Origin: Folioceros fuciformis
Lineage: Eukaryota
NCBI GenBank assembly: GCA_049999805.1
Contig: JBNGIO010005494.1
Location: 62,001 to 82,314 of the forward strand
DNA: 20,314 bases
Direction of reading: 5' to 3'
Shown piece after piece: positions 1-18,659 of the stretch. A program made the position numbers and the translations under genes. The notes under the pieces were generated by a model, which searched no databases, was not told the origin of the DNA, and saw only the letters and a program-made list of their open reading frames with translations. Numbering within the stretch: position 1 is the first letter of the stretch; each line of letters begins with the position of its first letter.

Positions 1-3000
1 CTGAGATTGTCCCTTTCCCAGATCGAACCAGGTATGGAGACTTTGATGATGGGGATCCTGCTCCTTGTTCTGCACGTTTTATCATCACACACCCATCTTG
101 GATGCTGTAGGCGTGTTATGGACTTCCGGGCCAACTTCATAGCTGAATCCGAGCTAGTCAGCCCCTTGGACTTGGCTGCTTATGGACCTGAGTTCACCGT
201 CGTGCAAGTTGGAGGAAATTTCCAGGCAACTTCTAGGATGGAGAATCTGACTTTTACCCTAACGAAAAGCAACAACTCAACTGATGGTCCCATCGTGAAT
301 GCTTATGAGGCTTACCTGGTCTTGGATGTGGTTCCGGGTACAAACGCAGGAGATGGTGAGGTGGACTTCTCAATAGTTCCTGCCTTTGTAGCATGTTCTG
401 CGTTTTCTGCATCTCCTGCCACTCACAGCGGTTCACTTCACAACAGTAACGGCACTGACTGCCCTCAAGCCTGCTCTTGGATTCAATAACTGGGCTGGTG
501 ATCCTTGCTTGCCTGTACCATGGGATGAGCTGATCTGTAACATGAGTGATCGAGTGACATCTTTGTAAGTAGCTTCATTCTAGGTTTTGGGGAGGGAGAG
601 AATATTTTTCTCTGCATGCTGGTGGTCTCACTTCTTCGGCATTTGCTTGCAGGGATCTTTCCGGCAAGGGCCTCAACGGCTCCATTCCTTCCGAGATATC
701 TGGTCTAGAAGCACTCACCCTGCTGTGAGTATGCTTGGGCAGTGCTGTTGAAGTTCATCTTGGGATGGGAGGGTGATAGGCCAAATTCGAAAATCTGACA
801 GTACTTGCTGGATTTGCAATGAGCCCAGGAACTTATCTAATAATGCTTTCACCGGTGGCCTCCCAAGTTGGATTGCAGAGCTGAACTCCTTGCAGACCCT
901 GTGAGTGGGTGGGGCTTCTATTTGTTTCTTATTATTTTTCAGTATGTGTCATGAACCTCGAACATCCTAATCCAGTGATCGAAGCCGTTGCTGTCTCTGT
1001 CAGGGATGTTTCCAACAATCAGCTGAGCGGTAACTTTCCTGCAGCATATATCACTCACATCCCTCAATTCAGGTAAGAAGGTTGTCGTCTCATCAGTCCC
1101 TCTGTTAAAAGTGAGCTGTTGAAAGCTATTCACCTACGTAACCGAAAAATTGCAGGTACTCAGGTAACCTGCAGCTCAACTGCGTACCTTCAGATAATGC
1201 AACCTGCCCACCAGCCCCAGCAGCACTTCCAGCACTGTCTCCAGTCACACAAAGTCCACTACCTCTTTCATCAAACTCAGCAGCAAGGTCCAACGATCGA
1301 AATCAAGGGTCTCACATCTGGGTCATTGCTGGGAGCATTGCTGGAGGCATTCTTATCCTTTTTGCTGTTGGAGGACTCGTTCTCTGGTTCATTTTTTACA
1401 AACTGTCCTATCAGAGTGACTTACAAGCTCCTGATACGTCAGCAATACCGCAAGTGCACACAAGTGGTACCTCTTACCTTCCTGCGCCGTGGGTCATGGA
1501 GTGCACATCTGTCAGCAAGTGAGTGCTGGTTCACTAGTTTCTCATGAGGTACAACGTGTGGGTGTTCCATTCCTGGTCTCTGCAGACTCGAAGATGGTCT
1601 CTAATATCAGAGGAAGGGCTCAAGCGTTTAGTCTCCAAACCATTGAGGAAGCAACGAATAGGTTTGCTCATAGGGTTGGAGAATGTGCGTCTGGATCTGT
1701 CTTTCACGGAATCCTGAAAGACAGTTCGCAGCCAGTGGCAGTGAAGATCTTCTCAGGAAAGCCCGACAGAAGCCTGACTCAGTTCTCAGAAGAGGTAAGG
1801 AATCACTACCGAGATCCAGCTGCTTAGCCGCATTCCCAGAGGCCGTCAGGGAACTACATGTGTTCGCTGTATGTGCTTGCTGGCTGATGGACAACCACTG
1901 GCGTTGCCAGATTGATCTTCTGGCTACAGTTTGCAGCGACAAGTTGGTATCCCTCATTGGTTACTGCATACAAGGCGAGAATCTCATGCTTTTGCTCTCT
2001 CACGTGTCGGGAGGAGCTCTTCGTGATCATCTGTATGGTATGTCCAGAAAACTGATACCCTGCTTCAGACAACTGTCCTAAGGATAAGTGTCAAGTTTCC
2101 GGCATGAGACAGTTCTGTCCCAGAGGTGTTCGGGCCAACGTGTCATCCACAGGGGAAGTGGGGGTGGATTAGACATTGTTCGATCGAGTAATGTTGCGCC
2201 AGGTCTGTGAAAGGTAGGGGCTTGAATGGCTTAGCTCATTAGGGTGAACGAAATACAGGTGAGAAGGCTACAGGAGCTCCTCTGACATGGAGCCAGAGGC
2301 TGAAGATCGCCACCGACGTTGCGAAGGGTGAGGTGTTCGTTTCGTTTCAGTTGCCTGTTTGGCTGGGAAGGGGACAGGACGGTTCCACTGTCTTATGCAC
2401 CCTTCCCAACTGTGTGTGAGCAGGCCTGGAATACCTCCATAGTTGGAACCCAGCCATCCTCCACGGGAAGGTGAAGAGCAGCAAGGTTCTCCTTACCGAA
2501 GGACTCGAGGCCAAGTTAGCTGGATTTCATGCTACCAACCTGAGTTACAACCGAAGATCCCGTGGCATGGCGGAGGAAACTACGGGATACTTGGACCCAG
2601 AGTAGGACCTTCTCCAAGCCAACGTTCTTGTCCAACAGAAAGCTTAGCACAGTACTTTCTCCCTAAAGCCTGAAGGATCCGTGCAGGTACGGCACGAGTG
2701 GGATGCTGACAGAGACGACCGACGTCTTCAGTTTCGGCGTTGTGCTTTTGGAAATCCTGTGTGGACGGCCTCCCGTATCCAAGGACGACCCCACATACGT
2801 TCTTGCAGAACAGGCAAGCCACTCCAAGATTGAAGTTCCACCCTGTCTTGCCGCGAAGCAGTGAGCTGTCGTAGGGGTATCAGATCGAATAAGACCTCTC
2901 TCACACCCGCAGGCTGTCTCTGCTGCGTTGCCCGTCCTCCGCAGGTGCCGGCTGCCATGAATACAGGAAACCTGCAGGCGATGGTAGATCCCAAACTAGT

Positions 3001-3187
3001 CGAGAAGTACAAGGTGGGTTCAGTCTGGAGGTTCGCCGAGGTAGCTGTGAGCTGTGTGCAACTGACCCCGTCCCTGAGGCCAAACATGAGCCAGGTGGTG
3101 GTGGGTCTAGAGGAGGCCCTGGCACTGCAGTTGGTTGGAAAAGGCGAGAAGGCTTCTCCTGGCCACTCAAATGACATCACCAACTGA
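1..3187 (+). CDS. Malectin-like domain LRR receptor-like pseudokinase (LRR-I type), 5' end outside window. Exons: <1-31, 111-355, 447-564, 653-724, 829-900, 1004-1072, 1156-1466, 1586-1794, 1911-2037, 2259-2327, 2424-2601, 2687-2813, 2945-3187
   Basis: Manual splicing gives one continuous frame. It reads: malectin C-terminus ([13 protein letters not shown]), LRR N-cap ([17 protein letters not shown]), 72-nt LRR exons ([32 protein letters not shown]), a Pro/Ser-rich linker, TM helix [28 protein letters not shown], and a kinase fold ([55 protein letters not shown]). Introns are GT-AG except one GC-AG. Confidence 0.92.
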
Positions 3188-3845
3188 CCAAAGTGTGGAT
3201 ATGACACAGACATTCCAACCAACACCACCGTAATAGCAATCCTGCAGTGCTGCAGCGATCCTTTCTGTGACCTGGTCCGTAGCTGTCATGGAGCTCTGAC
3301 TCCTTCTGTGTGTGCACCTCAACCTGGCCACCATGCTATCCCGAGAGAGTTGTACAAAAATGCGACAGCGTAGCTGGATGGCGCAAGTGGGCATGTGTTA
3401 TCTGCACAGCAATATCTGAAAGTCCGTGCAAGCACACGGCACTGGCGCCCCTCGCTGTGTGCCAGCATCTGCAGCCCATTGGCTCTGCCAACCCACGGTC
3501 GCCGCATCAACGACCCGTGCCGGCTTGCAAATTGCCCTTTAGGCGGGCCTGTCTGCCACTGTAATTCGCATTACCCGGTCTGGTTTACAGGGTCAACGCA
3601 CAGCGGGCCTTGATGAGGAAGCAACATCACGGAAGCTGCGAGGTAGAGCGCACGCGTTACTGCCACCCAATCCGAGGGGAGGCGGGTCCACGGCAAGAGT
3701 CTGGTAAGCTGCGGGATCAGCAGCGGCGGGAAGCATGGCGGCTGGGGCTGGGTGAAGCATTTCCGGATTGCAGCTGCTTCTAGATCAGAGATTGAGGACC
3801 TCTCCGAGCGAGGAGGCGGCTCTGGCGGTCGTCCACGTCCCGGCG

Positions 3846-4819
3846 ATGGAATCTCTGGCTCGTAGCCTGCGCGGCCGGAGGCTGTGGTTGCTGTGGCTTG
3901 TTGGCGTTGCGCTGCTGCAACGCCTTGTCGGCATTGCCGATGGGCAGACCGGAGGTGCGTGCTCTGCTGCTGCTTCCTGCAAAAGCTTCCTTCCTTACTT
4001 CCTGCTTTCAGCGCAGCTTTGCCCAGCAGCCCACAAGGCCAGGATCTATCGGTGCCTGAATCCTGAAACGCGCGTGTGCAGGGTTCATCAGCATCGACTG
4101 CGGCGCGGATGCGGATTTCATTTACACGAATCCCGACACCGACCTCTCCTTCGTCAGCGACGCGAGCTACATCTCCACCGGGGAAGTGGCGTCCACGTCG
4201 GACGCCCAGGTCACGGATCTCACCTCGCTCAGGTTCTTCCCCGCCTCATCGCCCGTGAAGAACTGCTACGACCTGGTCGTCGTCAACAACACGCAGTACA
4301 TGGTGCGAGCCTGGTTCTACTTCGGGGGCTACACCACTGTGCCAGCAAACGGCATCAACTTCCAGGTAGTGCGTCCATTTTCCCCGGTCTCGGCAGAGGC
4401 GCGTGTGTGGCTTGGTGCCTGGCTGGAGTGCTTAGCCTGAGAGACTGTGTGGCAGCAGATTGCTGTGGATGCTACGGTGTGGTGGCACGTCACCATCGAC
4501 ACCACTCCGAACGCTGTGACCTATTACGAGGTCATGGTCATCGCCACCAAGCCCAGCATGAGTGTCTGTTTGATCCGGCTGGACAGCAGCGACCCTTTTA
4601 TCAACACCCTGGAGCTCAGGCCGGTCTCTAGCTCCTCGTACAACGCAAATTTGGATGAGGACAGAACCATCATGCCCCTGCTCCTGCGGCGTAATTTCGG
4701 GGAGCAGACAACCACGTACAGGTTGGATATCAATGTAGGGATCCCCTGTGAGCCTGAAAGTGCAGTCTGCAGCTTAGGCGGCCTTGACATGGCCGATCTG
4801 TGTGCTTGTAGGTATCCTT
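3846..4819 (+). CDS. Second malectin-like receptor kinase, N-terminal part. Exons: 3846-3954, 4082-4365, 4459-4721, 4812->gap
   Basis: Signal-peptide exon MESLARSLRGRRLWLLWLVGVALLQRLVGIADGQ, followed by hallmark malectin-like motifs GFISIDCG, SLRFFP, KNCYDL, YMVRAWFYFG, SVCLI...PFINTLELRP, RRNFG and RYP. Splice sites are in phase. Confidence 0.9.
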
Positions 4820-4829
4820 NNNNNNNNNN
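4820..4829. other. Assembly gap (10 N) hiding the middle of the RLK gene
   Basis: The left side is mid-malectin domain (RYP) and the right side is kinase subdomain VIII-IX. The equivalent stretch of the first paralog is longer than 2.6 kb. Confidence 0.95.
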
Positions 4830-5394
4830 ACAACAGGCATGCTCACCGACAAGAGTGATGTCTACAGTTTCGGAGTGGTGTTGTTGGAGATCCTGTGTGG
4901 GCACCCACCCATTCTACAGGAGGGTCCTCAAAGGTTCATCGTGGAGAGGGTGAGAGTCCTCATCCTCTCTTAACCTGCCATTCCAACATTCACAGCACAA
5001 AACTCATCGTTGTGTGTGCCGATTTGAGTCACAGGTGAAGGCCGCCATGAACACTGGAAGCCTTGCATCCGTGGTGGATCCCGCTCTCAAAGGGGACTAC
5101 AAGCAGGAGTCGTTGTGGAGATTCGCAGAAATCGCCATGAGCTGCGTGCAAATTTCTTCCTCTGTCAGACCGGGCATGAGCAAGGTGGTGGCCGGACTCA
5201 CCCAGACTCTGGAACTGGAGTTCGGAGGGCAACAAGCACAATGGGTCCAGTCCAGCGGCGGGAAAAACAGCGACAGCATTACCCTAAATACCTCGGACAA
5301 CCCCGGCCCCCCTAGCACCTCCAGCTATTCCGGCTACAGCGCAGAGCAGCCTTCCCTAATTTTGTATGCTGATGACGGGCCTCGTGCATACTGA
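4830..5394 (+). CDS. Receptor-like kinase C-terminal part. Exons: gap<-4949, 5035-5394
   Basis: [27 protein letters not shown], then a GT-AG intron at 4950-5034, then [39 protein letters not shown]...RPGMSKVV and a Ser-rich tail ending DDGPRAY*. Clearly paralogous to 2687-3187. Confidence 0.9.
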
Positions 5395-5754
5395 GGCTCT
5401 TGAGCCTTTGTTCTCCATTAGTCTTAATCTTTCACCATGCTCAACTGTTCAGGCAACTCGCTCGTTCTAACTGGCGGGCACAGTGTTGAGGATGCCACCA
5501 TATTTTGTAGGATGCCAGCCACCATGGTGTACCTTTCACTCAGTCGTCTGCCCGCTCGCGAACTTTTAAGTCCGACATGAAGCTGCACTGCAGTCTTTGG
5601 GAAGGAATACGGATTTCGGTTTCACACGGTTTGAGCACGGTTCATCCTGCATGGGAGCTTTACTTCTATAGGGCCCTTCATAAATCTCTTAACAAGGGGG
5701 GGAAATTTGCAAAGGCTCTCACACTTGCTGATGGTGACGCGCTAGTGATGGCGG

Positions 5755-5850
5755 GTACTACACAACTGGCATGCTCACCAACAAGAGGGATGTCTTCAGT
5801 TTCGGGGTTGGGCTTGTTGGAGACCTTGCGTTGACAGGCACCTACGGTAT
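5755..5850 (+). pseudogene. Relic of a third RLK paralog (kinase subdomain IX exon)
   Basis: YYTTGMLTNKRDVFSFGV, then a frameshift to LLETL. The nucleotide sequence is similar to 4830-4900. No neighbouring exons are recognisable. Confidence 0.75.
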
Positions 5851-6145
5851 TCCACAAGCACCTATGGGGCTTTATAGGTTCATTGAGGGAAGGGTAGAAT
5901 CCTCGTATTCTCTTACTTTCCTCTCGAAACGTTGGAACTTTGTTAGCGGCGGTGGAATCGGTTTTCCAAGAATCCTTCAAAGTGGACTTGGTGTGGAACT
6001 CCGCCGAACATCAATGAGCAAGTGTTCCTGGCCCCATTTTCTTTTCATAGCTCAGCAATCTGCTTTCATCGAGCTGTGGGTTGATCATATCCTGTCCCAG
6101 GCGAAAGTGGTTCATCACCGCAAAGGTCAGTGGAGCAGTCTGAGG

Positions 6146-6295
6146 TATGGCATACCAAAGCGGACACTCTCTTACTAACCATTTTTTAAGGGTTTTTCAT
6201 GGGGTATCTTTCAGAATATTCGCTTTTGATGCCCATATTTTTCATGTCCCTTTTGGTAACTCTCCCAAAGCGGACGACGCACGAAACCGGACACA
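6146..6295 (+). mobile_element. Left terminus of a TATGG-ended DNA transposon (same family as the 16498 MITE)
   Basis: TATGGCATACCAAAGCGGACAC matches the MITE TIR at 21/22. About 130 bp more aligns with 16520-16650. No right end followed by the expected CTGAGG duplication was found. Confidence 0.85.
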
Positions 6296-6759
6296 GAAAA
6301 AACACCACATTTTCTCGTTTTCGGGTTCACGCTACGTAAATTTGTCACCCAGGTTTTTAGTTTCTTAGGGTTAGATCTGCAGGGAATATTCTCATTTTGG
6401 GATGGAATATGCACAGAATATTCCTTTAGGGTTTAGGGTCTTCCCAGAATATTCTTCGTCACCCGTTTTTCGCGAGCTCTCATAGTCACGGGCTCGTTGG
6501 CAAGAAGGGAGGGGGGGCTGAGCGGATGAGCTCTTGCTTGGGGGTTCTCGAGCATGGAAATCATGCTAGATCCAGATTTTGAAGCCGCTCTTGCTGGTCT
6601 CCTCATATGAACTTAGATTGGCCGTAATGGATACGCTCTGCAGGAGCGACAAGCGTAGGCGCTTGTAGGAGCAAGCTCTAATAGCCATCACAGTGGAAGA
6701 GTGTATCAAGCGGTGTGCAATTTCTGTTGTGCCATTGCTTCCGCACTGCTAAACCCTAT

Positions 6760-7773
6760 ACACGACTCGCAGTGTGCTCTTGTGATGGGCAGATGCCTTC
6801 GAGCGACTCTACTGGCGCAGCAGACTGTTCGACCACAGTCTCTTCATAGCCATGCTCTACCTCATGCTCAACTCCAATAGTTGTATCTTCCTCAGGGTGC
6901 ATCAGCCGGATCCAAGTCAGCTGCACCAGCCACATCCGCCTCAGCTGCAGAGGCCACATGTACGTCACCTGCAGATTCATCTCCTTCCACAGCTTGCGCC
7001 AACAGTGCAGTGATGTTCAGGGTTTCATGAAGTCATCACTTTCATCCAAGCCCTTGACAACCTTCGGTGCAGCGGTCACACAAGCAGCCTTTCTTGGCTC
7101 TCCGGCATGTACACTCACAAGCGGATCCCACAGTGTGGGGACATGGAAGAGGAGTTCATCACACACCAGAGTGCCATCTGCCTCACAACGCTCCACATAA
7201 ATGCTGCCTTTACATGTATTCCTGCGTTTGACTTCACGTAGAAGAGCTGACCTAAGGAAAAAACATGTCCCTTCGGGTAGAGACCAAAAGGGCTGCGGTC
7301 GACAACAAACCTGATTGACACGCACTGCATACCATACGAGAACAATGGGCACAATACTGAGGTAAGCTACTACCTGCCATTGTAGGAAATAGAAGCCTTT
7401 GCACATTCCGGAGTCAGACCTCGGCCCGTGGACAAATTTGCAGCATCGTTGGGTGCCCTTAGCTCCATCCCATTTGCAGCACCACTGGTCAGCACAATGT
7501 TCCTCCCCCCTTGTCCAGCCTTGCAGCATACGCAGCTCACCTCCCAACATAGTCGCATAACACGGCCCCACGACATGGCGATGTAGGAACAACCAGCAGA
7601 CAAGACATTCCGAAATAGTCACCTTACCTGAGCTTTGCCAAAGACTTCTCTCCTACCTCGGGATCAAATATTGCCCGCCCGTACTTAATCTCAAAGACGA
7701 TGCTGCGCAAGGAAAAGCATGATTCAGAGTCCGTCCAGGTGTCTTTGGCTGAAGGCCGCAGACGAGTGAGCAT
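6760..7773 (-). pseudogene. Degraded coding sequence of unknown function, possibly internal to the 6146 transposon
   Basis: ATG at 7773 opens MLTRLRPSAKDTW...KSLAKL, ending at a strong donor AG|GTAAGG near 7628. Downstream protein-like pieces lie in shifting frames: YCAHCSRMVCSAC, GHVFSLGQLFYVKSN, YVERCEADGTLVCDELLFHVP, and an acidic stretch EEDTTIGVEHEVEHGYEE. Confidence 0.35.
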
Positions 7774-8769
7774 GGCGTCTTCGGAGTGACATCCGTCAGC
7801 CGTTGTCGTCGTAATTAACGTTAAGCTTCTCGCCTGCGAGGGTCCCGACCCGCTACTCGTGGGTGGAAAGCCGAACGCTAATTATGGCCACAACGGAGGA
7901 GTGCAATCATCCTAGCTCCAATCCATAGCAGGATTGCAAGCCATGGCTCACGGACGACCTTGGATTGCCCTCCTTAACTGCTCCAAAATCCGCCGGCACA
8001 CTGCCTGCCTGCCTTCATCCTGCCCACCCCCCATCTGCCGCCAGGCCGCCTCCCGACCACGTTCCGGCCAAGCCTGGGCCTGATCCTCCTCTGTCCAGCT
8101 GGCTGCACTCAAGGTCCTCAGCCCCTGGCGCACCTGGGGCTGAGGCCAAGGCAAGGGTTGGCACCCCCATGCCTATCCCCATTCTCCACCAGCAAGCTCC
8201 CGACGCCCCAACTCGCCCTCACCCGTCCGACGTTTTTTGACGTCGGGCTTGGTACTGGCCACGGGCAGCATGTCATAAGACCCTGCGCCACACGCAAAAT
8301 TTTGAAAATCAAGTTCAATCACGCACCTGCCAGACGCGAGTGCAGAAGAGTGCACAGATTGACGTGAGTGTAGAAGAGTCCAAAGAATGATGTAGATCAC
8401 TCGCGTCTCGCAGGTGCTGTCTCTCCACAACATCCACTGTCAATCTTGCAAAACTGAGGGTTTAGGGTTTCACAGAGCATATCCACGAGCAACCATCAGC
8501 GACACAATTGGGTGCTCAACGTTCAGGGTTTATGTGCCAGGGTTGGGTTGCATAGTCCATCTATCGGCCCTATCGGCCCAGGACGGGCTGCCATCCTTGC
8601 CCGTTGGACTGCTTGCTACTCTGATGTTTATAGCTGGTTGTCACACATATCCCCGAGATGTATCACCTCCTGTTATTACGCCATTTCCTTTTTCTTTTGC
8701 ACCAAATACATTGGCATGTAACCCCGTACCCACATCCCGTCATGCCCTACGCCCCCGTCTCATCAGGCC

Positions 8770-9010
8770 TTCCCGCCGAATCGCCTAATCGTGTTTCCAG
8801 CACATGTCGTGGCCCACAACCGACTAGATCCAGCCCCTACCTAAACTCGAAATCTGTTCAAGAACGGACCTCCTTGCCATCCACCACCTTCCCCACGGGT
8901 CGCACTATGTCCTGCATTCTTGCAATGCTTGTTGCGCACATACAAGATTGTGCGGGAGGTGTCCATATCCCTCACGACTGCCACAAGTTGGAACTCACAC
9001 CCAATTACGG
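8770..9010 (-). pseudogene. Possible Mutator/MULE-related N-terminal domain remnant
   Basis: The minus strand reads GCEFQLVAVVRDMDTSRTILYVRNKHCKNAGH, which resembles the GC...Y...H...H pattern of WRKY/FAR1-like MULE DNA-binding domains. It is flanked by stops and frameshifts. Pattern resemblance only. Confidence 0.2.
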
Positions 9011-9529
9011 GACCGTCTCGATGGATACTGCCTCCTCAAACACACGAATCGCCCACGTGTCCTTCGTTGTGTCGCTGCTTCCAGGATTGCATGCTTCCCG
9101 AGAAGGGTTTCCCCATCCATTGTGCCGCCGTAGTCCCGTTGGTGGGGCTGTTCAGCGGGAACATGTCATTGCCCGCAGCTCGTTCCCCCCCACACCGTTC
9201 AGCTTCACACGCCTTCTCCCGCAGTGGGGCTTATCTTTTTATATACTACGCTATGTCACTGAATACTGGCATACAGCTGTCCTTCACGCCTCGGTGGCGG
9301 CTCCGTCTACCCTCACGTGGCGTAAAACGCATGCCTTCCTACCTACCTCTCCACCCCCCATCCCCGCCCCATGTCCATCACATGTCTTCACTACACACTT
9401 TCGGTTCAAACATCGTGACTTGTGCCCTTCTCAACCCTCCACTACACCCTTCAACAATATTCTCATTTGTATACCAATATATATACATATGTGCAGCACA
9501 CCTTGTTTCAAGTGTGCTCGGTTGTGACA

Positions 9530-9811
9530 TGACATGCACAGTCCTTGTTGGGCCATCAATATAGCATAGTTTTTGTTTGTGGTGCTTGCAAGAATGCCTT
9601 GGTGTAGTGTGTATACAAATGGGTTGCTTCCAACAAAGGGTATACACTTGCGAACTTATATGTAGCTACAGTCCTTGGCCATCGACGCTTCTGATTGATC
9701 CCACCTCGCAACCTAATACACAAATATTGTCCTTGGCCATTAATGTTTGTTATTCATAGTAATTTGCATCATTGAGCTCCGTTGTGGACATTGGGTATCG
9801 CCCCCTTTTTC
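9530..9811 (+). repeat. Degenerate ~175-bp tandem repeat, left of the copia insertion
   Basis: Motifs AGTCCTTGGCCAT, TTCTGATTGATCC, GCATCATTG and GCCCCCTTTT recur in the same order at 15930-16190. Confidence 0.65.
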
Positions 9812-10044
9812 TGACGCTGATCGAGCGAGCACGCACGCAAGCCAGTAGATCGCATAAGATAATGTATTCAGCCCCCGAAGCACGGGAACATACAGGTGGT
9901 TTCCATACGGCATGTTCATGTCACTTGACATCTCGGTAGTTAAAACAAATAATTGTCCTAACATGTAAACCCTAACTACTTCCTAGATATACGTTTATAG
10001 ATAGAAAAGTTTTAGGGTAGGTGAAACAAAACAATACGCCATCA
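9812..10044 (-). repeat. 3' LTR (233 bp, complete)
   Basis: On + it starts TGACG and ends CATCA (TG...CA with short inverted ends). The first 177 bp match 15720-15896 at 167/177. It contains a minus-strand TATAAA (9994-9999) and a telo-box AAACCCTA. Confidence 0.9.
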
Positions 10045-10056
10045 CCCCCACTTGAG
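10045..10056 (-). promoter_or_regulatory. Polypurine tract
   Basis: Minus strand reads CTCAAGTGGGGG immediately before the TG of the 3' LTR. Confidence 0.75.
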
Positions 10057-10087
10057 TTTCACGAAAAAAAAACTTGTACTTAACGAC

Positions 10088-10297
10088 ATGATTCTGCTGA
10101 CCTACTTCCTCTCAATTTGTCGGCTGCAGCTGAAGAAACTTATTGCAACTCTTGCCTGGATCATCTCTGCCTTGGACCGTGTCATCTGTGAGCTCGAAGC
10201 CGACCAAGATGCTGTTACGCATGCCGATTTCCCGCCACCTCAGCTAACAGCAGCGGACCGCCTCTCATCTGCAGGAAAACAGGTTTCTACCTTCTGA
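10088..10297 (+). CDS. Putative 69-aa antisense ORF in the copia 3' UTR
   Basis: MILLTYFLSICRLQLKKLIATLAWIISALDRVICELEADQD...; open ATG to TGA and fills most of the RNaseH-PPT interval. It is short and could be chance. Confidence 0.3.
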   Translation: MILLTYFLSICRLQLKKLIATLAWIISALDRVICELEADQDAVTHADFPPPQLTAADRLSSAGKQVSTF

Positions 10298-10388
10298 GAG
10301 TTGGAATCAACACCGAATCAACACCTAGCCTCTCCCGGAATTACTACACAACTGCGACATAGCCCAAGATGGAGTCAGGCAGTAGTAT

Positions 10389-13300
10389 TCAGTCTTCACT
10401 GCAGGCTGATATGCCCAGTCTAAATGCATGTTTGTTATGCTGCTCCTTAGACAGGGCCTTAGTAAGTAGATCAGCTGGATTTTCAGCAGAAGGTATGTAG
10501 GTGACTGCAATTTGTCCATTTCCTACCACTTCTCGTATAAAATGATGATGTATCTCCATGTGTCTAACCTTGGAGTGGAAGACCGAATTGCGTGATAGTG
10601 CAATGGCTCCTTGGTTGTCGCAATGGAGAATGGTTGCCTCCCTCTGGGTTACCCCTACATCTGCCAGGTTTCTTCTCACCCAGATCGCTTCTTTTGCTAC
10701 CACTATCAAAGCCTTATATTCTGCTTCTGTGCTGGAAGTGGAAATGGTGGCCTGTTTCTTGCTGGTCCAAGAAATGGGACCTCCAGCAAGCATAAATACG
10801 AAGGCTGACATTGACTTTCGACTATCCAGGTCAGAAGCCCTGTCAGAGTCGCAGAAAACCCTCAAGAGTAAGCTCCTTGTCCTCTGTTCCCACATAGGTT
10901 ATGCCATGATTTGCAGTGCTCTTCAGGTAACGAAAGGTTCTTTTTACCTGACTCCAGTGCTCTAGATGTGGACTATCCAGGAATTGGGATTCCAAGTTGA
11001 CTGAAAGGGCTATGTCAGGCCTTGTAACATTTGAGAGATATATCAAGGTGCCAAGAGCATGCCTGTATGGCCTCCTTGACATTTCTTCCGCTTCCTCTGA
11101 GGTTATCTGTACCATGTTCTTCTGCAGTCTTAGCCCTGTAGCAAGAGGGGTGGCACTCCCGTTTGCTTCACTCATGTTAAACTTCTTAAGACTGTCTCTT
11201 ACATATTTCCTTTGAAATATGGACAGTGTCCGTGCTCTCTTGTCTCGTTTGATCTCTATGCGTAGGCACTAGGTCAATTCACCAAGCTCGGTCATCTCGA
11301 ATTCTCGCTTCAGCAGTTCTTTCACTTTCTGGAGAAGACTTCCCTTGCCCTTGGTGGCTGCTAGAATCAAGTCATCAACATATAGTAGCAAAATCAGAAA
11401 TTCTCTGCCTTCTTGCAGCACATACAAGCCAGGGTCAGCGGTGCCCTGCTTGAAGCCCAGCTTCTTAAGGTGTGCATCTATCCTTTGACTCCAGGCTCGA
11501 GGGCTCTGTTTGAGCCCGTACAAAGTCTTCTGTAATTTGCAGACCAGATGACCAGAATTCAGCTTGACATAACCCTCTGGTTGCTCCATGTACAGGTCTT
11601 CCTCTAGCATGCCGTGCAAAAACGCTGTTTTCACATCCATTTGTTCCAAGTCCAAGTCCATGTGAGCAGCCAGAGCCAAGACCATACGCAAGGTAGAAAA
11701 TTTGACAACTGGTGCAAAGGTGTCGAAGTAATCGACTCCTGGAATCTGCGAGAAGCCCCTTGCAACCAAGCGGGCCTTGTACCTTGCAATGCTCCCGTCA
11801 GCATTCATCTTACGCTTAAACACCCACTTGCAAGTTATGGGCTTCCTTCCCTCTGGTAACTCAGCTAGAGTCCATGTTCCATTTTAATGATTGAGGAATA
11901 CTCCTCATCCACTGCTTTCTGCCAGTATTTTGCTTCAGGACCTGAATAAGCCTGCTGCATGTTTGCAGGTTTCGTGGAGTCAGTGGTAGCTGCAAGCAAA
12001 GCCTGTACATAGGCTGTAGACGGGGCTGCGTCCTCTTCTGAATGGCCAGCACTATGTAACTCTCCACCAGCTCCAGGTGCCCCCACTGGATGTATATCAA
12101 TGGCAGCAAGGGTGCTATCTTGATCCTTGCTGCCTTTTTGCTTTCTCGTCTTAGACTTGCTCGTAGCTGCAGGTCTCCAGTTCTCCATCTCCAAAGGAGG
12201 CTCCTTCCATGGTCTATTCTGCTCTCTTAAGCTGTATCTTCGGGGCTGCTCTACAGGTGGCTGTTCAGCTGCATCAAGACCCCCAGCTACATCGATTTCA
12301 ACCCCTACTTCAGCTGCATACTCCAGATCTCCAGGGTCATGTTATGAAGGTAAGAGATTGTCTTCACCTAGAGATTCCAGCATGCTTTCATCTTCCTCAC
12401 CTGACTGGTCAAAGCGAGCTACTTCCAGGGTGTCCACATCAGCTTGACTCATCACCTGGAAGTCCTCAAACGACTCTTCTTCTTCATCAGCTTCAACAAC
12501 CACAGTTGGTATTTGCTCAACACTGCTGCCAGTATTGAGAGTGGCTGTGGGCGGTCGCATTACACTTCGTTCATCGAACACCACACTCCTAGCATGACTA
12601 ACATCACGTGTTGCAGGGTCATACAATTTGTAGGCCTTTATACCATCTGTATACCCTATGAACACTAACTTATGTGCTCGATCATGCAGCTTGGTTTCTC
12701 TCTTGGGCTTTGGAACAAAAGCATAAGCCGGTGCGCCAAAGATACGAAGGTGTTGAAGTGTAGGCTTCCTGCCCCACCATGCCTCAAAAGGAGTCTGACC
12801 AGGTACAACCCGAGTAGGTAACCTGCTCAGTAAATAATTTGCTGTGTTAATGGCCTCGGCCCAATACCCTCGAGGTAGACGGGCTTGCTTTAGCAACGCT
12901 CTAGCAGTCTCTTGAAGTAGTTGATTTTTCTTCTCAGCCACGCCATTGAGTTGAGCTATATGCGGGACTGTAAGCTGCCTCTGGAAGCCGAGAGACCGAC
13001 AATATGCCTGAAAAGCACCTGAGGTATACTCCCCACCATTGTCAGATCTTAGGCATCGAAGTTGGTGACCAGTCTGTCGTTCTCCCATTGGCAAATAATC
13101 TTTGAATCGCTGAAGTGCCTCGCTCTTGTGTCTCAAAATGTACAAAATGCAATAGCGGGTGAAATCATCAATGAACGTCAGAAAATATTCACCTCCACCA
13201 ATCGAAGGCACTGAGATAGGTCCACAAATGTCCGAATGGACAAGCTCCAAGGGTACAGAGGCACGATGAGCTCCATCTTTGTCAAACGCAAACTCATGGT

Positions 13301-13937
13301 GTTTGCCATAAATGCAGGATTCACACAAAGGTAGAGCCCCCACTGAACCTAATATGCCATCTGAATAGAGAGAACTCTTGGCCATCGACAATAGCTTTCT
13401 TTCATGTGGGTGGCCATAGCGCAGGTGCCAAAGCATGGCAGTCTCGCTAGGGGTGAGGTTTGCAGAAACATCAGCAACATGTAAAGTGGGCAAGCGACTT
13501 CCAACTACACTCAACTGGTAAATGTCGTTGACCGGATACCCTTCAGCCAACACCTCATCTGATCTTGCACCATTGGTGATTGTACACTTCTCGCCACGGA
13601 AGGAAACTTGCATGCTTGTATTTGATGTAAGCCTACGAACAGATAACAAATTTTTTGTCATTGCAGGAATGTGGAGAACATTCAACAGCTCCAATTGTTT
13701 CCCATGATGTAGCTGCAAGGTAACCTTCCCTGTCCCCACAATTGGAAGGGTGCTCTCATCTCCAAGGAGAACAGACTGAACATCTTGATAATGCTGGTAC
13801 TCATGAAATTGTGCACGATCATGGCAGATATGCACCGATGCACCCGAGTCTATGAACCATGCAAGGGTGTGGGTCCCGGATGTGGTGAGACACACAGTCA
13901 AGATGACCTGTGTCGACTTCTTCCTAGAGGTTTGCAC
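10389..13937 (-). pseudogene. pol: Copia pol (protease, integrase, RT, RNase H), fragmented
   Basis: PR: WFIDSGASVH. Integrase zinc finger: LWHLRYGH...CESC. Integrase core: LVHSDICGP, FIDDFTR, LRSDNGGEY, NGVAEKKN. RT: YKARLVARGFSQ, QMDVKTAFL, LYGLKQSPR, LLYVDDL. RNase H: FCDSD, STEAEY, CDNQGAI, ADLLTK. Confidence 0.97.
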
Positions 13938-13939
13938 AG

Positions 13940-15050
13940 AATGTGCTTCCGGAGAGCCAGCACTCTCCTTCCGCGGCTCACCAGCCTTTCGCTTGCGACA
14001 GTTTCGAGCCCAGTGGCCAGGTATGCCACATTAGTTGCAATGACCCGACTTTTTCTGATTGCTTGAGGTCTGACCCGGTCCACTGGAATTGGACCTGCCG
14101 CCCCTGTTTGCATTCCAGCCTCCTCGTCGTCCTCTGTAGGGCTTGCCCCTACCAGCAAATAGGGCTTGCTGGCCCTGAATTTGTTGTTTCCCAGAGTGAG
14201 GACAGCCGGGTTGCTTCCTCTTAGAGCATAGCCCCCACCACACCGTTAAATGTAAGGGGATCAGCTTCAATCTTCAAAGCCTTTGCAAGACGAGCTTCGA
14301 CCTTCGCCATGGCTTGCTAGCCGGTGACAAAGGGCCCGTAGCTCGGAGGTAGTGATTTCAGTAATTTGCAACTAGCATCATAGTCGGTAATCTTCGTTCC
14401 TGTAGAACTCAGCTTGGCTCGGGCAATGCGAAACACCCGATGTAGTGTTCTACTGTTTCACCTTCCTGCATTCTAAGAGAGTAATATTTTGCTGATGCAG
14501 CCATGGACGCCACCATATCGTGGGATGCAAACATCATCGCCAGATGCGTCCACATATCCATGGCAGAGTCCCCCGGCCCATCGGAGGCTTGCCTCATCAT
14601 CTCTGGGGACAAACCTGATCTAATCAGGTTCTTTTCTCGAATGTCCGCCAAATGCCAAATCGGCATGTCAGGAGAGGTTTCTTCAGGTTTCACAGTCTCG
14701 CCATTCACCATGTGCCATAAATTCTTTTCTTCAAGTGCGCCTTGCATGTGCATTACCCATATATCGTATTCACTTCCAGTAACAAGGCGGTCCTTTTCCT
14801 TGAACCCGCCACTAGTAAGAGATTGAAGTGCTTGGAGCACATCCTCCCTCGCTTTTTCGTCTAACTCCGACATGCTTCTGTTTGTGTCTGACCAGTTGGT
14901 AGTTACTGACACTCGTGCTGAATCCACATCCATGCCCCTGGCAGACCTTGTGTCCGAGGATAGATCTTCATCATCAAAATCTATCAAACCAACTTCTCTT
15001 GCAAGATGCTGCAACCCGATGGGCGTTCTATATGGTCGTTCTTCACTCAT
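13940..15050 (-). pseudogene. gag: Copia gag with CCHC zinc knuckle, fragmented
   Basis: GSEYDIWVMHMQGALEEKNLWHMVNG, LRMQEGETVEHYI, LLKSLPPSYGPFVT, an RG-rich tract, and knuckle CN*CGIPGHWARNC at ~14000-14040 with an internal stop. Confidence 0.9.
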
Positions 15051-15076
15051 CAGCAACTGTCATTTTTAGACTCGAC

Positions 15077-15586
15077 TTATTGTTGTTGACACTGTGTGCA
15101 AATAGTGTGATTTTGATGGGTAGCAAGTGACTCTAAAACTTTGGTTTGTTCCTGGATGTGCGGTTTTGCAAGAATAAACAACTTAGCATCTACTTGCTGC
15201 AGGTGGGAGTCAAGTCTAGCGATTTGGTCAGTGAGGCTGTCCAAAGTTGACAGGATATGTTGGGTGCGATAGAGTGCAGTGCCGTTTATATTATCCAGAT
15301 GCTGAGTAAGGTGCTGAACGAAGGCTGTGAGAGACTCTTCCCTTTCCCTTGTCAAAGACTCAACCCGACGACAGGGTTCTGACTCCCTACATCTGTTTGC
15401 TAGAGACCTGCGGTAAGCGTGGATGCTTGGATTGGCATTGACAAGATGTGGGATCCTCTCAAGAAAGTTGTGCAGCCTACTAACGTGTTGTCCCCATGGC
15501 GAAGGAATGTTTGTAACTTCGTAAGGTGGGACAGCATGAAAGACTCTTCGCTGATTTCCCCGGCTGCGCCTTTGGCATTGTGCCAT
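15077..15586 (-). CDS. Extra 169-aa ORF between PBS and gag (unknown product, predicted coiled coil)
   Basis: ATG-initiated 510-nt open frame on the element's sense strand. Leucine periodicity in ILSTLDSLTDQIARLDSHLQQVDAKL and a C-terminal HxxCxxC. It is in a different frame from gag. Confidence 0.55.
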   Translation of the reverse strand: MAQCQRRSRGNQRRVFHAVPPYEVTNIPSPWGQHVSRLHNFLERIPHLVNANPSIHAYRRSLANRCRESEPCRRVESLTREREESLTAFVQHLTQHLDNINGTALYRTQHILSTLDSLTDQIARLDSHLQQVDAKLFILAKPHIQEQTKVLESLATHQNHTICTQCQQQ

Positions 15587-15704
15587 CTTCAGGAGCCAGA
15601 CTAATTCTTGTTCGTCATTTGTGCAGGCACAATTGCGCTCGCCCTCATCTCCGTAATTCCTCTTCTTGCGCGCTTGCAGGCGCCAAAGAATTCAAAGTTT
15701 TAAT

Positions 15705-15719
15705 CCGGCTCAAATACCA
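15705..15719 (-). promoter_or_regulatory. Primer-binding site (tRNA-iMet-like, degenerate)
   Basis: Minus strand reads TGGTATTTGAGCCGG directly after the LTR CA. The canonical plant iMet PBS begins TGGTATCAGAGCC. Confidence 0.8.
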
Positions 15720-15896
15720 TGATGCTGATCGAGCGAGCATGCACGCAAGCCAGCAGATCGCATAAGATAATGTATTCAGCCCTCGAAGCACAGGAACGTA
15801 CAGGTGGTTTTCATACGGCATGTTCATGTCGCTTGACATCTCGGTAGTTAAAACAAATAACCGTCCTAACATGTAAACCCTAACTACTTCCTAGAT
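15720..15896 (-). repeat. 5' LTR, outer 56 bp deleted
   Basis: Identity to the other LTR stops abruptly after TTCCTAGAT. The CATCA end and the TSD are absent. Confidence 0.9.
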
Positions 15897-16190
15897 TGTT
15901 CTTAGCTTCAGAACTTGTGGGACCCTGCAGGCTAAAGCCCTTCAAAGCTTCTGATTCATCCAAACTTGCGACCTTATACACGAATGCAGTCCTTGGTCAC
16001 CAACATTTACGGTTCATATGACCTCGCATCATTGTACTCCGCTAATGTGCACAATGGCATTTGCCCCCTTTTCATGGTCCTCTCTCGGGCACTTATAGTA
16101 CTTGGTAGTCCTTGGCCATTGACGATTCTGATTGATCCAACATTGCGTCCATCCTATCCTTTACAGACATTGGCCTTCGCCCATTGTCGG
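15897..16190 (+). repeat. Continuation of the degenerate ~175-bp tandem repeat
   Basis: TTCTGATT(C/G)ATCC occurs at ~15950 and ~16125. 15940-16073 aligns with 9685-9811. Confidence 0.65.
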
Positions 16191-16294
16191 GTTCCCAAGT
16201 CGCACCCAACTCTATCACATGCACGTGTACACTCTGAATCACACGGAATACTGTCCTGTTACGGTCTACGATGTGACTTCCACCTAGAGTTGTA

Positions 16295-17500
16295 GAAAAA
16301 TAGGCAAGGGTAGGAGCAAGCTGGCAGGGCGTTGGTGTCATACTTTGTTCCATTGACATAATTCGGAAAAAAAAAGCGTTTGTCTCCAACGTCCTGATTA
16401 GGGTGTAGGCCACAAGTAATGTTCACTCAGGGTGGTTGTAGTACGATTCATAGCCTGATGCCCTGCAGATGGGCCATCGTGGCCCGAGGCAAGGAAGTAT
16501 GGCATACCAAAGGGGACACTCTCTCACTATACTTTTTTTAAGGTTTCCCAAGGGGTATCTAGCCAAATATTCCCTTTTGATGCCTATATTTTTCCTGTCC
16601 CTTTTGGTAAACCAACCAAACCGGATGCTGCACCAAAGGGGACATGGCTTTACGATTACAGCCCGTTTTGGGCTGAATGCCGGGCGACCGTAGGGCAGAA
16701 AGCCCAAACACCCCTCCTTAACCATAGGTGGGGGCGCGCCCGTGCTTGGGCAAGACATGCTTGCGAAGCGCAAGCATGTCTGATTTGGTTTTGGCCTTCA
16801 AAGTCGCGTACGCGCCCCATGGGACGCATAATGGGTGTGTTTGTAAAAAATCCTAGAGAGAGGGGGCGTGTCCCCTTTGGTATGCCATAAGGAAGACCCA
16901 GCAGATATTGGTACCTGTGGAATGAAGAGTCGATGGCGAAACCATAGCTGGCCATCCCCCTTAGTTCTATCAGTGTTTACAACTCGAACGGCCTGAAGGG
17001 CACATCTGTCATCCGCATCTTGGACACGAGCCCTGGCAATTCCATCCCGCCAGTCGGATGGAATACGTAACTCCTTGAGTGCGATCGTTTGCACCACACT
17101 TAACGCATCAGCAATATGGTTTTGATGGCCTTTGATGTAACATATCTCATATTGGTATTGCTGGAGCATCTCAAGCTATCGGGCTCCTTGCATGAGATAG
17201 TCGTCAGCTAATAGACATAAATACGAGGGCAGTGGTCTGTCTCCAGTTCGAAAGGGGCACCTTCTAACAATGAACGCCATGGCTTGACTGTCAAGATTTG
17301 AGCGAAGGACTCCTTCTCGCTTGTTCTCTGTAGATGAACTCGGCTCCCATCAACCTCCGCGAGAAGAAAGCAATAGTCTGCCGGCCTGGGTCTCCAGTTC
17401 TGTGGCAAGACCACACCAACGACCAGGTTGGAGACATGGGTTGTAATATTAACAGGTACGGCTTGGTTTGGGTGTGCTAACATAGGGGCATTCCCCAAAG
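16295..17500 (-). mobile_element. pol: Degenerate Ty3/gypsy pol fragment (RNase H to integrase zinc finger), interrupted by a MITE
   Basis: RNase H: APMLAHPN...VGVVL, SEKE...WRSLLEGAPFELETDH, LQQYQYEICYIKGHQNHIADALS, GDGQLWFRHRLFIP. After the MITE: HDGPSAGH...HYLWP and CQWNK...RPASLLLPLPI. RNase H preceding integrase is the gypsy order. Confidence 0.88.
16498..16889. mobile_element. Complete 392-bp non-autonomous DNA transposon (MITE), 22-bp perfect TIRs, 6-bp TSD
   Basis: TATGGCATACCAAAGGGGACAC (16498-16519) and its exact reverse complement (16868-16889). AGGAAG lies on both flanks (16492-16497, 16890-16895). Gypsy coding sequence is present on both sides. Confidence 0.95.
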
Positions 17501-17649
17501 CAGTCTGCCTATCACGAACTTGGTTGTCTTGAACAGCACCTCAAGTCTAAACCTAGCAGGAGGCATGCCCAAGTGCACGCCTCCCCTCCCCATACATTTG
17601 TTTGCACACATAGGCTCTACGCATCCCCTGTGGTTTGTACACGAGTTTG

Positions 17650-17938
17650 AAAACCAAACCGGACATTTGGCAAAAGCATGGTCAAACGGCGTGTGTGCAC
17701 GGTTAGAACCATGTTCCAGGTGTTTGAGGCTGGAACACGGTCAGCCTTGGGGTTGAAAGCTGAAACACCACCTGTAACCATGGGTGGGTGCACACCCGTG
17801 CTTGGGCAAGGTTTGCTTGCAAAGTGCACGCATGTCCTGTTTGGATGTGGCTCTCAAACTTGCATACGCATGAAAGTGGATGCGTAAACCATGTATTCCA
17901 CTTAAAGAGAGGGGACGCGTCCCCTTTGGGTTGCCTTA
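17650..17938 (+). mobile_element. Diverged right-hand part of the same MITE family
   Basis: 17762-17845 aligns with 16705-16790 (AACCATRGGTGGG..CCCGTGCTTGGGCAAG..TGCTTGC). It ends in GCGTCCCCTTTGGGTTGCCTTA (18/22 to the TIR). Confidence 0.7.
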
Positions 17939-18461
17939 ATCATGTATTCAGGGACTCCAGTTCAGGGTCGGTGTTGTCACATTCCATGTTTGTTCAAGCT
18001 GGTGCCAAAGTCTGTACAAGTCATGGCAATGACGCTGCCTCTTCTCCAAGCCCAGTTCGTACATCATGCATCCCCTTTGCAGCGTCCACGCCCCCTTCTG
18101 AAAGACATGAAGGTGTTTTATCTCATTCATAAGAAAGGAACCCACAATAACTCGCAAGTGTTGTCCTTGGAATCCCAAAAACTGCACAAATAGTGTGTAG
18201 GGTGAGTTTAGGGTTCTACATGTACCATATTACATAATATACGTACACAAATTTTTAATACATTTATCTCAAGAGTTCTGCTAATGGTACCCAATGCCAT
18301 ACTCTAAGGATGTGCCATTTACCGTACACAGTCAACTATGTTTGCCTCAATGGATGTAAGCAATGATGATGCAAAGGAGAACTTTGCTTTCAGAGCTAAG
18401 GAACCATGCCTCCATATATGGGTTCATGAGTACGCATGCATGGCATGCAAAAGAGGACACG

Positions 18462-18580
18462 TATGGCATACTAAAGGGGACACGGGCCCTCTCTCTAGGA
18501 TTTTTTACAGACACACCTGTTATGCATCCTATGGGGCGCGTACGCGACTTTGAAGGCCAAATCCAAACCAGACATTTGAC
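18462..18580 (-). mobile_element. Inverted, truncated right end of the same MITE family, preceded by an older TIR at 18439-18460
   Basis: Reverse complement of ~16775-16889, with TIR 21/22. The adjacent CATGGCATGCAAAAGAGGACAC matches the TIR at 18/22. Confidence 0.88.
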
Positions 18581-18659
18581 AGATGCATGTGAAACAACTT
18601 GTGTGGAGGGCACTTGAAAAACGCTCTTAACCCTAAGCCCTAAATCCTAAACCCAAATA

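Follow-up and report, generated by a model that had tools for sequence, protein, structure and literature searches.

A 392-bp MITE of probable IS3EU/GingerRoot affinity in a hornwort genome

IS3EU and GingerRoot group together as a single lineage with 99% bootstrap support, the members of which have TA..TA ends and 6-bp target-site duplications (TSDs) (Kojima and Bao 2023, PMC10045372). The ends of fungal (rust) IS3EU elements read TAYGG..CCRTA and their terminal inverted repeats (TIRs) are over 30 bp long (PMC12730594), whereas GingerRoot TIRs are 100 - 150 bp long; thus TIR length varies in the lineage. The plant in which GingerRoot was originally recognized is Selaginella lepidophylla (Cerbin et al. 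2019, PMC6839031). In the survey of that paper, 18 mosses and 3 lycopods yielded GingerRoot reads; charophytes and seed plants yielded none. According to the same source, GingerRoot TSDs are 61.2% GC, the elements co-locate with Gypsy, and fragments of host genes, introns included, are present in 22 of 77 elements, mostly in ones without a DDE motif. A later paper counts GingerRoot among the plant superfamilies (PMC9804982). The words 'Hornwort' and 'Anthoceros' do not occur in the main text of PMC6839031, the tables S5-S6 of which could still contain a hornwort entry. No report of IS3EU/GingerRoot in hornworts was found among titles and abstract openings.

The window analyzed here, a stretch of 20,314 nucleotides, contains a miniature element (MITE) of 392 bp that an earlier note, made from the sequence alone, had called IS3EU-like and considered unexpected in a plant lineage. 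The classification has held up, whereas the surprise was misplaced because GingerRoot, of the same lineage, had already been described in Selaginella and mosses. The MITE is a real element and, with a probability of about 90%, a non-autonomous member of the IS3EU/GingerRoot superfamily, residing in a hornwort. This reading is supported by the 6-bp TSD, by the TATGG..CCATA ends and by a PF24764 transposase in a sister element that is bounded by TIRs and a TSD.

The anatomy of the MITE is as the earlier note described it (Table 1). The pairing of the two 22-bp TIRs was not matched in any of 100 shuffles, the AGGAAG duplication is present on both sides, and the TIR core recurs twice in the interior, once inverted and once direct. 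The TIRs can be extended to 31 bp at 87% identity, only 22 bp being perfect, and position 16889 is also the common end base of the other copies (11 contigs in run X1 and 11 in run X2). The internal core copies are putative extra binding sites for the transposase. The folding of the MITE strand (z -9.3) results from the inverted repeats and carries no weight as evidence. Pfam matches on its two sides place the MITE inside the remains of an old Gypsy-type pol, which agrees with the target bias published for GingerRoot. No contig spans the MITE junction in four runs, which consist of contigs only and tell neither way about an empty-site allele, and no RNA record is listed for 15900-17900.

Table 1. 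Positions of the elements, repeats and coding remnants discussed in the text. Coordinates refer to the window unless a locus and contig are given.
Feature	Position	Strand	Basis or remark
Long member sharing the left end of the MITE, TIR 21/22	6146..8530	+	homology to other copies to ~8530
Captured 3' fragment of RNase P/MRP p30 gene, exons and introns	6793..7735	-	frameshifted
Integrase H2C2 zinc-finger piece, decayed Gypsy-type pol, left flank	16401..16493	-	PF17921, E 4e-5, just under cut-off
Left TSD, AGGAAG	16492..16497	.	direct reading; family TSD 6 bp
MITE, non-autonomous, probable IS3EU/GingerRoot type; no coding similarity seen	16498..16889	+	TIRs, copies
Left TIR	16498..16519	+	22/22 vs right TIR; repeat comparison
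Internal inverted copy of TIR core, 13/14	16596..16609	-	direct reading
Internal direct copy of TIR core, 13/13	16632..16644	+	direct reading
Right TIR	16868..16889	-	22/22 vs left TIR
Right TSD, AGGAAG	16890..16895	.	direct reading
RT RNase H-like piece, same decayed Gypsy-type pol, right side	17211..17540	-	PF17919, E 6e-10
Older right-type family end, 18/22; no left partner found	17917..17938	-	end search
Two tandem family ends, 18439 (18/22) and 18462 (21/22)	18439..18623	+	end search
HECT E3-ligase-like ORF	L096:2376-2876 (C5252)		also C2187, C2059, C6165, C302, C2292, C5869

All six family ends that had been noted in the window, with identities of 18/22 to 22/22 to the TIR, are present. 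They are located at 6146 (21/22), 16498 and 16889 (22 each), 17938, 18439 and 18462, the last being the start of a right-type end that long members have in common over ~160 bp. The exact TIR 22-mer has 40 matches in the 87-Mb genome and a relaxed 20-mer has 177, with none for either reversed control. A search with the MITE DNA gave 62 matches from the best 40 of 106 candidates, and these include 17 near-full-length copies besides the MITE. The copies are only 70-88% identical to the MITE, so that the repeated activity proposed earlier is upheld as activity spread over time, but a very recent burst is not shown. The smallest member seen, 113 bp long with an exact 6-bp TSD (L129:2876-2988 on C5800), gives a rough lower size for the mobile unit. 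Of 148 distinct family ends, 114 start with TATGG and 8 with TGTGG, in a search the pattern of which favors these two starts, though it allows three mismatches. At L001:589-677 (C147) and L107:8206-8332 (C6164) the TIR core forms tandem arrays at element ends, which suggests subterminal binding-site repeats in related families.

The length of the TSD was tabulated, as the earlier note had proposed, by pairing adjacent ends that face inwards. The 36 pairs come from loci picked by TIR matches, MITE matches, unpaired ends and transposase matches, and represent a sample, not the whole genome. A 6-bp TSD is exact in 13 pairs and present with at most one mismatch in 23 (18 of 25 in an earlier subset); a shuffled pairing control gave 0.41 on average and 3 at most. 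With one mismatch allowed, lengths of 5 and 7-12 bp still fit none of the pairs, which excludes for the family the 7-bp reading (AAGGAAG) that had been entertained for the MITE and leaves 8 bp at 0/36. The TSDs of MULEs are 9-11 bp long, and this length likewise fits none of the 36 pairs. The other exact duplications are of 2 bp (five pairs) and 4 bp (one pair). The 13 pairs without a 6-bp TSD are decayed or combine ends from different elements. Across the 23 TSDs the GC content is 61% and no base is fixed.

The genome contains 31 matches to the transposase domain PF24764 (rva_4), spread over 23 contigs; 27 are over the cut-off, and the domain is split by an intron. All copies seen are broken, truncated or cut at a contig end, and none is intact. 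The N-terminus is HTH-like (E 7e-4, below the cut-off), no HHCC motif was seen before the core, and the motifs include WHMD before the first intron, RSD and RIEHFW. The core, YDK..HAAIDG..RSD..EHN..GPS.HNQ-RIEH.W, matches the SL_GR rows of the GingerRoot supplement (PMC6839031) when compared by eye. The row SL-Gypsy-003 in Supplementary File 1 of the same paper also looks, by eye, like a GingerRoot DDE and not like a Gypsy integrase; such a misplacement may explain why a Gypsy element was grouped with GingerRoot there. The sole homolog found for the transposase exon (56%) belongs to the P0001 cluster, which has 16 members from metagenome contigs of 1-10 kb. For the transposase relative P0015 there was no match among solved structures.

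A complete pair of TIRs with a TSD was found at one of the 19 transposase loci examined. This element, C4167:4273-9426, is 5154 bp long, both of its TIRs match the MITE TIR at 18/22 positions, its TSD is GAAGAG/CAAGAG (5/6), and it contains a decayed PF24764 DDE transposase. Four more loci (L107, L145, L149 and L153) have a single TATGG/TGTGG-type end that faces the transposase. The MITE and the C4167 element have no blastn match to each other, and the C4167 element is therefore a sister family and not the parent. Their ends show weak similarity. The left subterminal region of the MITE is 51% identical to the C4167 3' end (z 3.3, with 1 of 300 shuffles as good) and 59% identical to a bridging end on C6191 (z 6.7); over 138 bp, this bridging end and the C4167 3' end are 75% identical. 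The right end of the MITE also scores against that 3' end (z 5.0). On C3981 a long relative continues directly into a transposase C-terminal exon that is 92% identical to a transposase locus on C6165; this junction may reflect a genuine link, but equally a nested insertion or a join made during assembly. In a second transposase subfamily the 3' ends are different, with TATGG followed by another core (L097:7101, L102:3628 and L164:6472), and at least two IS3EU/GingerRoot lineages therefore coexist in the genome.

It had been proposed that the transposase in the longest copies should reveal the superfamily. This was borne out by the PF24764 domain of the sister element, but not by the MITE's own long members, in which no transposase was found. 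Profiles built on transposase exons of this genome detected a DDE core neither in the window nor in the long left-end elements, and 20 regions extending inward from family ends were likewise devoid of a DDE match. No direct master was found in 17 regions around the HECT matches described below and the transposase flanks. An element that combines the MITE's own subterminal ends with a DDE core was not found, and many ends abut N gaps. On C6165 a right-type end lies 16 kb from a HECT/transposase remnant, with an LTR insertion and N gaps in between, and no left end was found.

DDE enzymes work by cut-and-paste, with staggered strand transfer followed by repair. The MITE would have been mobilized in trans by a PF24764-type transposase, encoded by a master copy that is now decayed or missing from the assembly. 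The HTH of the enzyme would bind the 22-bp TIRs, perhaps aided by the internal core copies. The excised MITE would then have been joined to its target, in the old Gypsy-type pol remnant, with a 6-nt stagger, and gap repair would have created the AGGAAG duplication. The long family members would have lost the transposase and gained pieces of host genes, as in Selaginella GingerRoot.

The long member at 6146 is an example. No transposase was found in it, and its right end was not identified. The p30 fragment that it carries is 943 bp long and 88.6% identical to its likely parent on contig C6647; the parent locus includes the N-terminal portion of the domain as well, and no family end is seen there. 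The same fragment is present on four other contigs; the copy on C5412 is 97% identical to the window member, flank included, and is therefore a segmental duplicate or the second haplotype. Compared to the parent, the fragments have dN/dS ratios of 1.0-1.5, with the window copy at about 1, and by this measure the captured fragments evolve neutrally. The captured gene has its best relative in the hornwort Nothoceros aenigmaticus, and the protein atlas had no usable match to the fragment. A minus-strand ORF at 7020-7652, considered as a second gene encoded by the element, was rejected because it is the captured p30 fragment. Contigs of run X4, which is guessed to be RNA, comes from another sample and is available as contigs only, cover 6344-9197 without differences at depths of 3-108, with one 72-nt skip that has CT..AC ends; depth is zero across bins 9328-16824. 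This one run of contigs suggests that 6344-9197 is a minus-strand, partly spliced transcript.

In its 6-bp TSD, its GC-rich targets (~61%) without sequence specificity, its TA..TA ends (TAYGG..CCRTA) with an occasional TG..CA, its integrase-like DDE core, found here in the sister family and not in a direct parent, its insertion among Gypsy elements, and its host gene fragments with introns in members without transposase, the hornwort family is like Selaginella GingerRoot as published (PMC6839031). It is unlike GingerRoot in its host, in the length of the MITE (392 bp compared to 3.9-12.9 kb for intact GingerRoots), in a perfect TIR of only 22 bp where GingerRoot has 100-150 bp, in the HECT ORF beside some transposases, and in one gene-carrying member that seems to be transcribed. 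IS3EU elements share with it the TAYGG..CCRTA ends, the 6-bp TSD, an HTH-like N-terminus, the lack of a visible HHCC motif and the existence of non-autonomous families (28 of 45 in Repbase). The TET+ IS3EU elements of rust fungi carry an alpha-kinase gene in opposite orientation, whereas the companion here is HECT-like and has the same orientation as the transposase. Long non-autonomous members with host gene fragments are also known as Pack-MULEs (PMC6839031), which belong to another superfamily and differ in TSD length.

The earlier note named a hAT subgroup with 6-bp TSDs as the main alternative. Such a group, hAT6, exists but is placed among animal Blackjack-like families (PMC12730594). 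The genome contains nine PF05699 matches, several in long open frames, and the missing direct master of the MITE can be counted for hAT6 as well. Nevertheless, no hAT transposase was found inside an element with family ends within 1.5-kb flanks: seven of the nine loci have no family end in this range, and the other two have matches with four mismatches that do not start with TATGG and are no more frequent than expected by chance (1.0 per shuffle on average). When 17 long ORF pieces from the hAT loci were compared with 11 long elements or element-bearing stretches, the sole tblastn match was that of a piece without a visible hAT motif, in the far flank of L107. The nine loci thus lend no support to hAT6, and movement of the MITE by this group is very improbable. 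Only slightly more credible, and still unlikely, is an unclassified superfamily with convergent IS3EU-like ends, the transposase of which would be the ORF in L123 (C6038:94744-100972). A left-type and a right-type end lie 6.2 kb apart there and enclose broken coding-like sequence without a meaningful Pfam match. However, the ends are old, their TSD matches at only 4/6 positions, the interior is not common to the other long members, nested insertions are everywhere in such loci, and PF24764 elements bear the same terminal motif. L123:3445-9673 (C6038) is perhaps a nested, unclassified DNA transposon.

Least probable, with next to no weight, is an origin from Ginger2/TDD, from a Polinton or as a solo LTR, although all these groups are given 6-bp TSDs in PMC6839031. 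Their termini are TG..CA (Ginger, LTR) or AG..TC (Polinton), compared to TATGG at most ends here, and the terminal repeats of the MITE are inverted and not direct. The TATGG termini therefore refute these origins.

Some of the IS3EU/GingerRoot transposases have a neighbor. A HECT ORF (PF00632, E 1e-11), which has 14 matches in the genome, 7 of them at 62-100% identity, is located upstream of the transposase and on the same strand on four contigs, C5252, C2292, C5869 and C6165. Its longer N-terminal part (L104:5683-6648) has no Pfam match. The ORF retains a Cys at the position of the HECT catalytic motif. Between subfamilies, pN is ~0.2 and pS 0.7-0.8, like in the DDE exon, and in the young subfamily dN/dS is 0.2-0.5, again as for the DDE exon; these values come from a simple counting method in which saturated pairs yield no ratio. 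The ORF is thus under purifying selection between subfamilies, unlike the neutrally evolving p30 fragments. The ends of the HECT-bearing copies were not found, and the one TIR-bounded copy, C4167, has no HECT match. No report of an IS3EU/HECT association was found in the literature, by title or abstract in wider listings, and 'HECT' and 'ubiquitin' do not occur in the main text of PMC6839031; Repbase entries could already record a HECT companion. This, the missing ends and the lack of a HECT match on C4167 count against the two-gene interpretation. Tentatively, and at somewhat less than even odds, the hornwort IS3EU/GingerRoot elements may be two-gene transposons, in which the predicted HECT E3, kept under purifying selection, would remove a host silencing factor or control the element's own transposase.

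The identity of the host bears on the distribution of the group. TIR1/COI1-type domains are known only from land plants, and five were found in the genome, in addition to at least 150 DYW domains (the best 150 of 488 candidates). A charophyte host is rejected by these two domain types. As the host is a land plant and not a charophyte alga, the published absence of the group from charophytes is not overturned. Ten DYW tails from the top of the list comprise seven DRH, one DRQ, one DGH and one canonical tail, DRH being a hornwort variant (PMC9478123). Two exon-sized matches to LCIB, reported among land plants in hornworts only (PMC8075897), are just over the cut-off. With the Nothoceros relative of the captured p30 gene, these features make a hornwort the most likely host. 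A homolog search with the malectin domain gave one 38% match, from flax, and was of no help in placing the host.

The rest of the window is occupied by genes and other repeats. Malectin-like receptor kinase genes and fragments are clustered in 1-5900, with PF12819 at 4060-4437 and three kinase-like repeats at 2700, 4836 and 5768. The minus strand of 9812-15896 holds what is left of a Copia-type LTR retrotransposon, with 177-bp terminal repeats that are 94% identical, and with gag, integrase and RT Pfam matches in broken frames. A 40-bp unit repeated five times is present on both sides of this remnant (9670-9810 and 15930-16150), and the Copia element seems to have inserted into a repeat of such units. 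On C6165 (L156) there are several stretches that resemble the unit.

Taken by itself the MITE is ordinary; what stands out is the extension of the range to hornworts and the HECT lead. If the HECT ORF is truly part of the element, it would represent a transposon-borne ubiquitin ligase and suggest an anti-silencing role that can be tested in plants amenable to experiment. IS3EU/GingerRoot makes MITEs in plants, and pipelines that apply angiosperm TSD rules would probably leave such MITEs unclassified. Hornworts join mosses and lycophytes as hosts, which extends the known group and fits the published idea that it was present in early land plants and was later lost from the line of ferns and seed plants.
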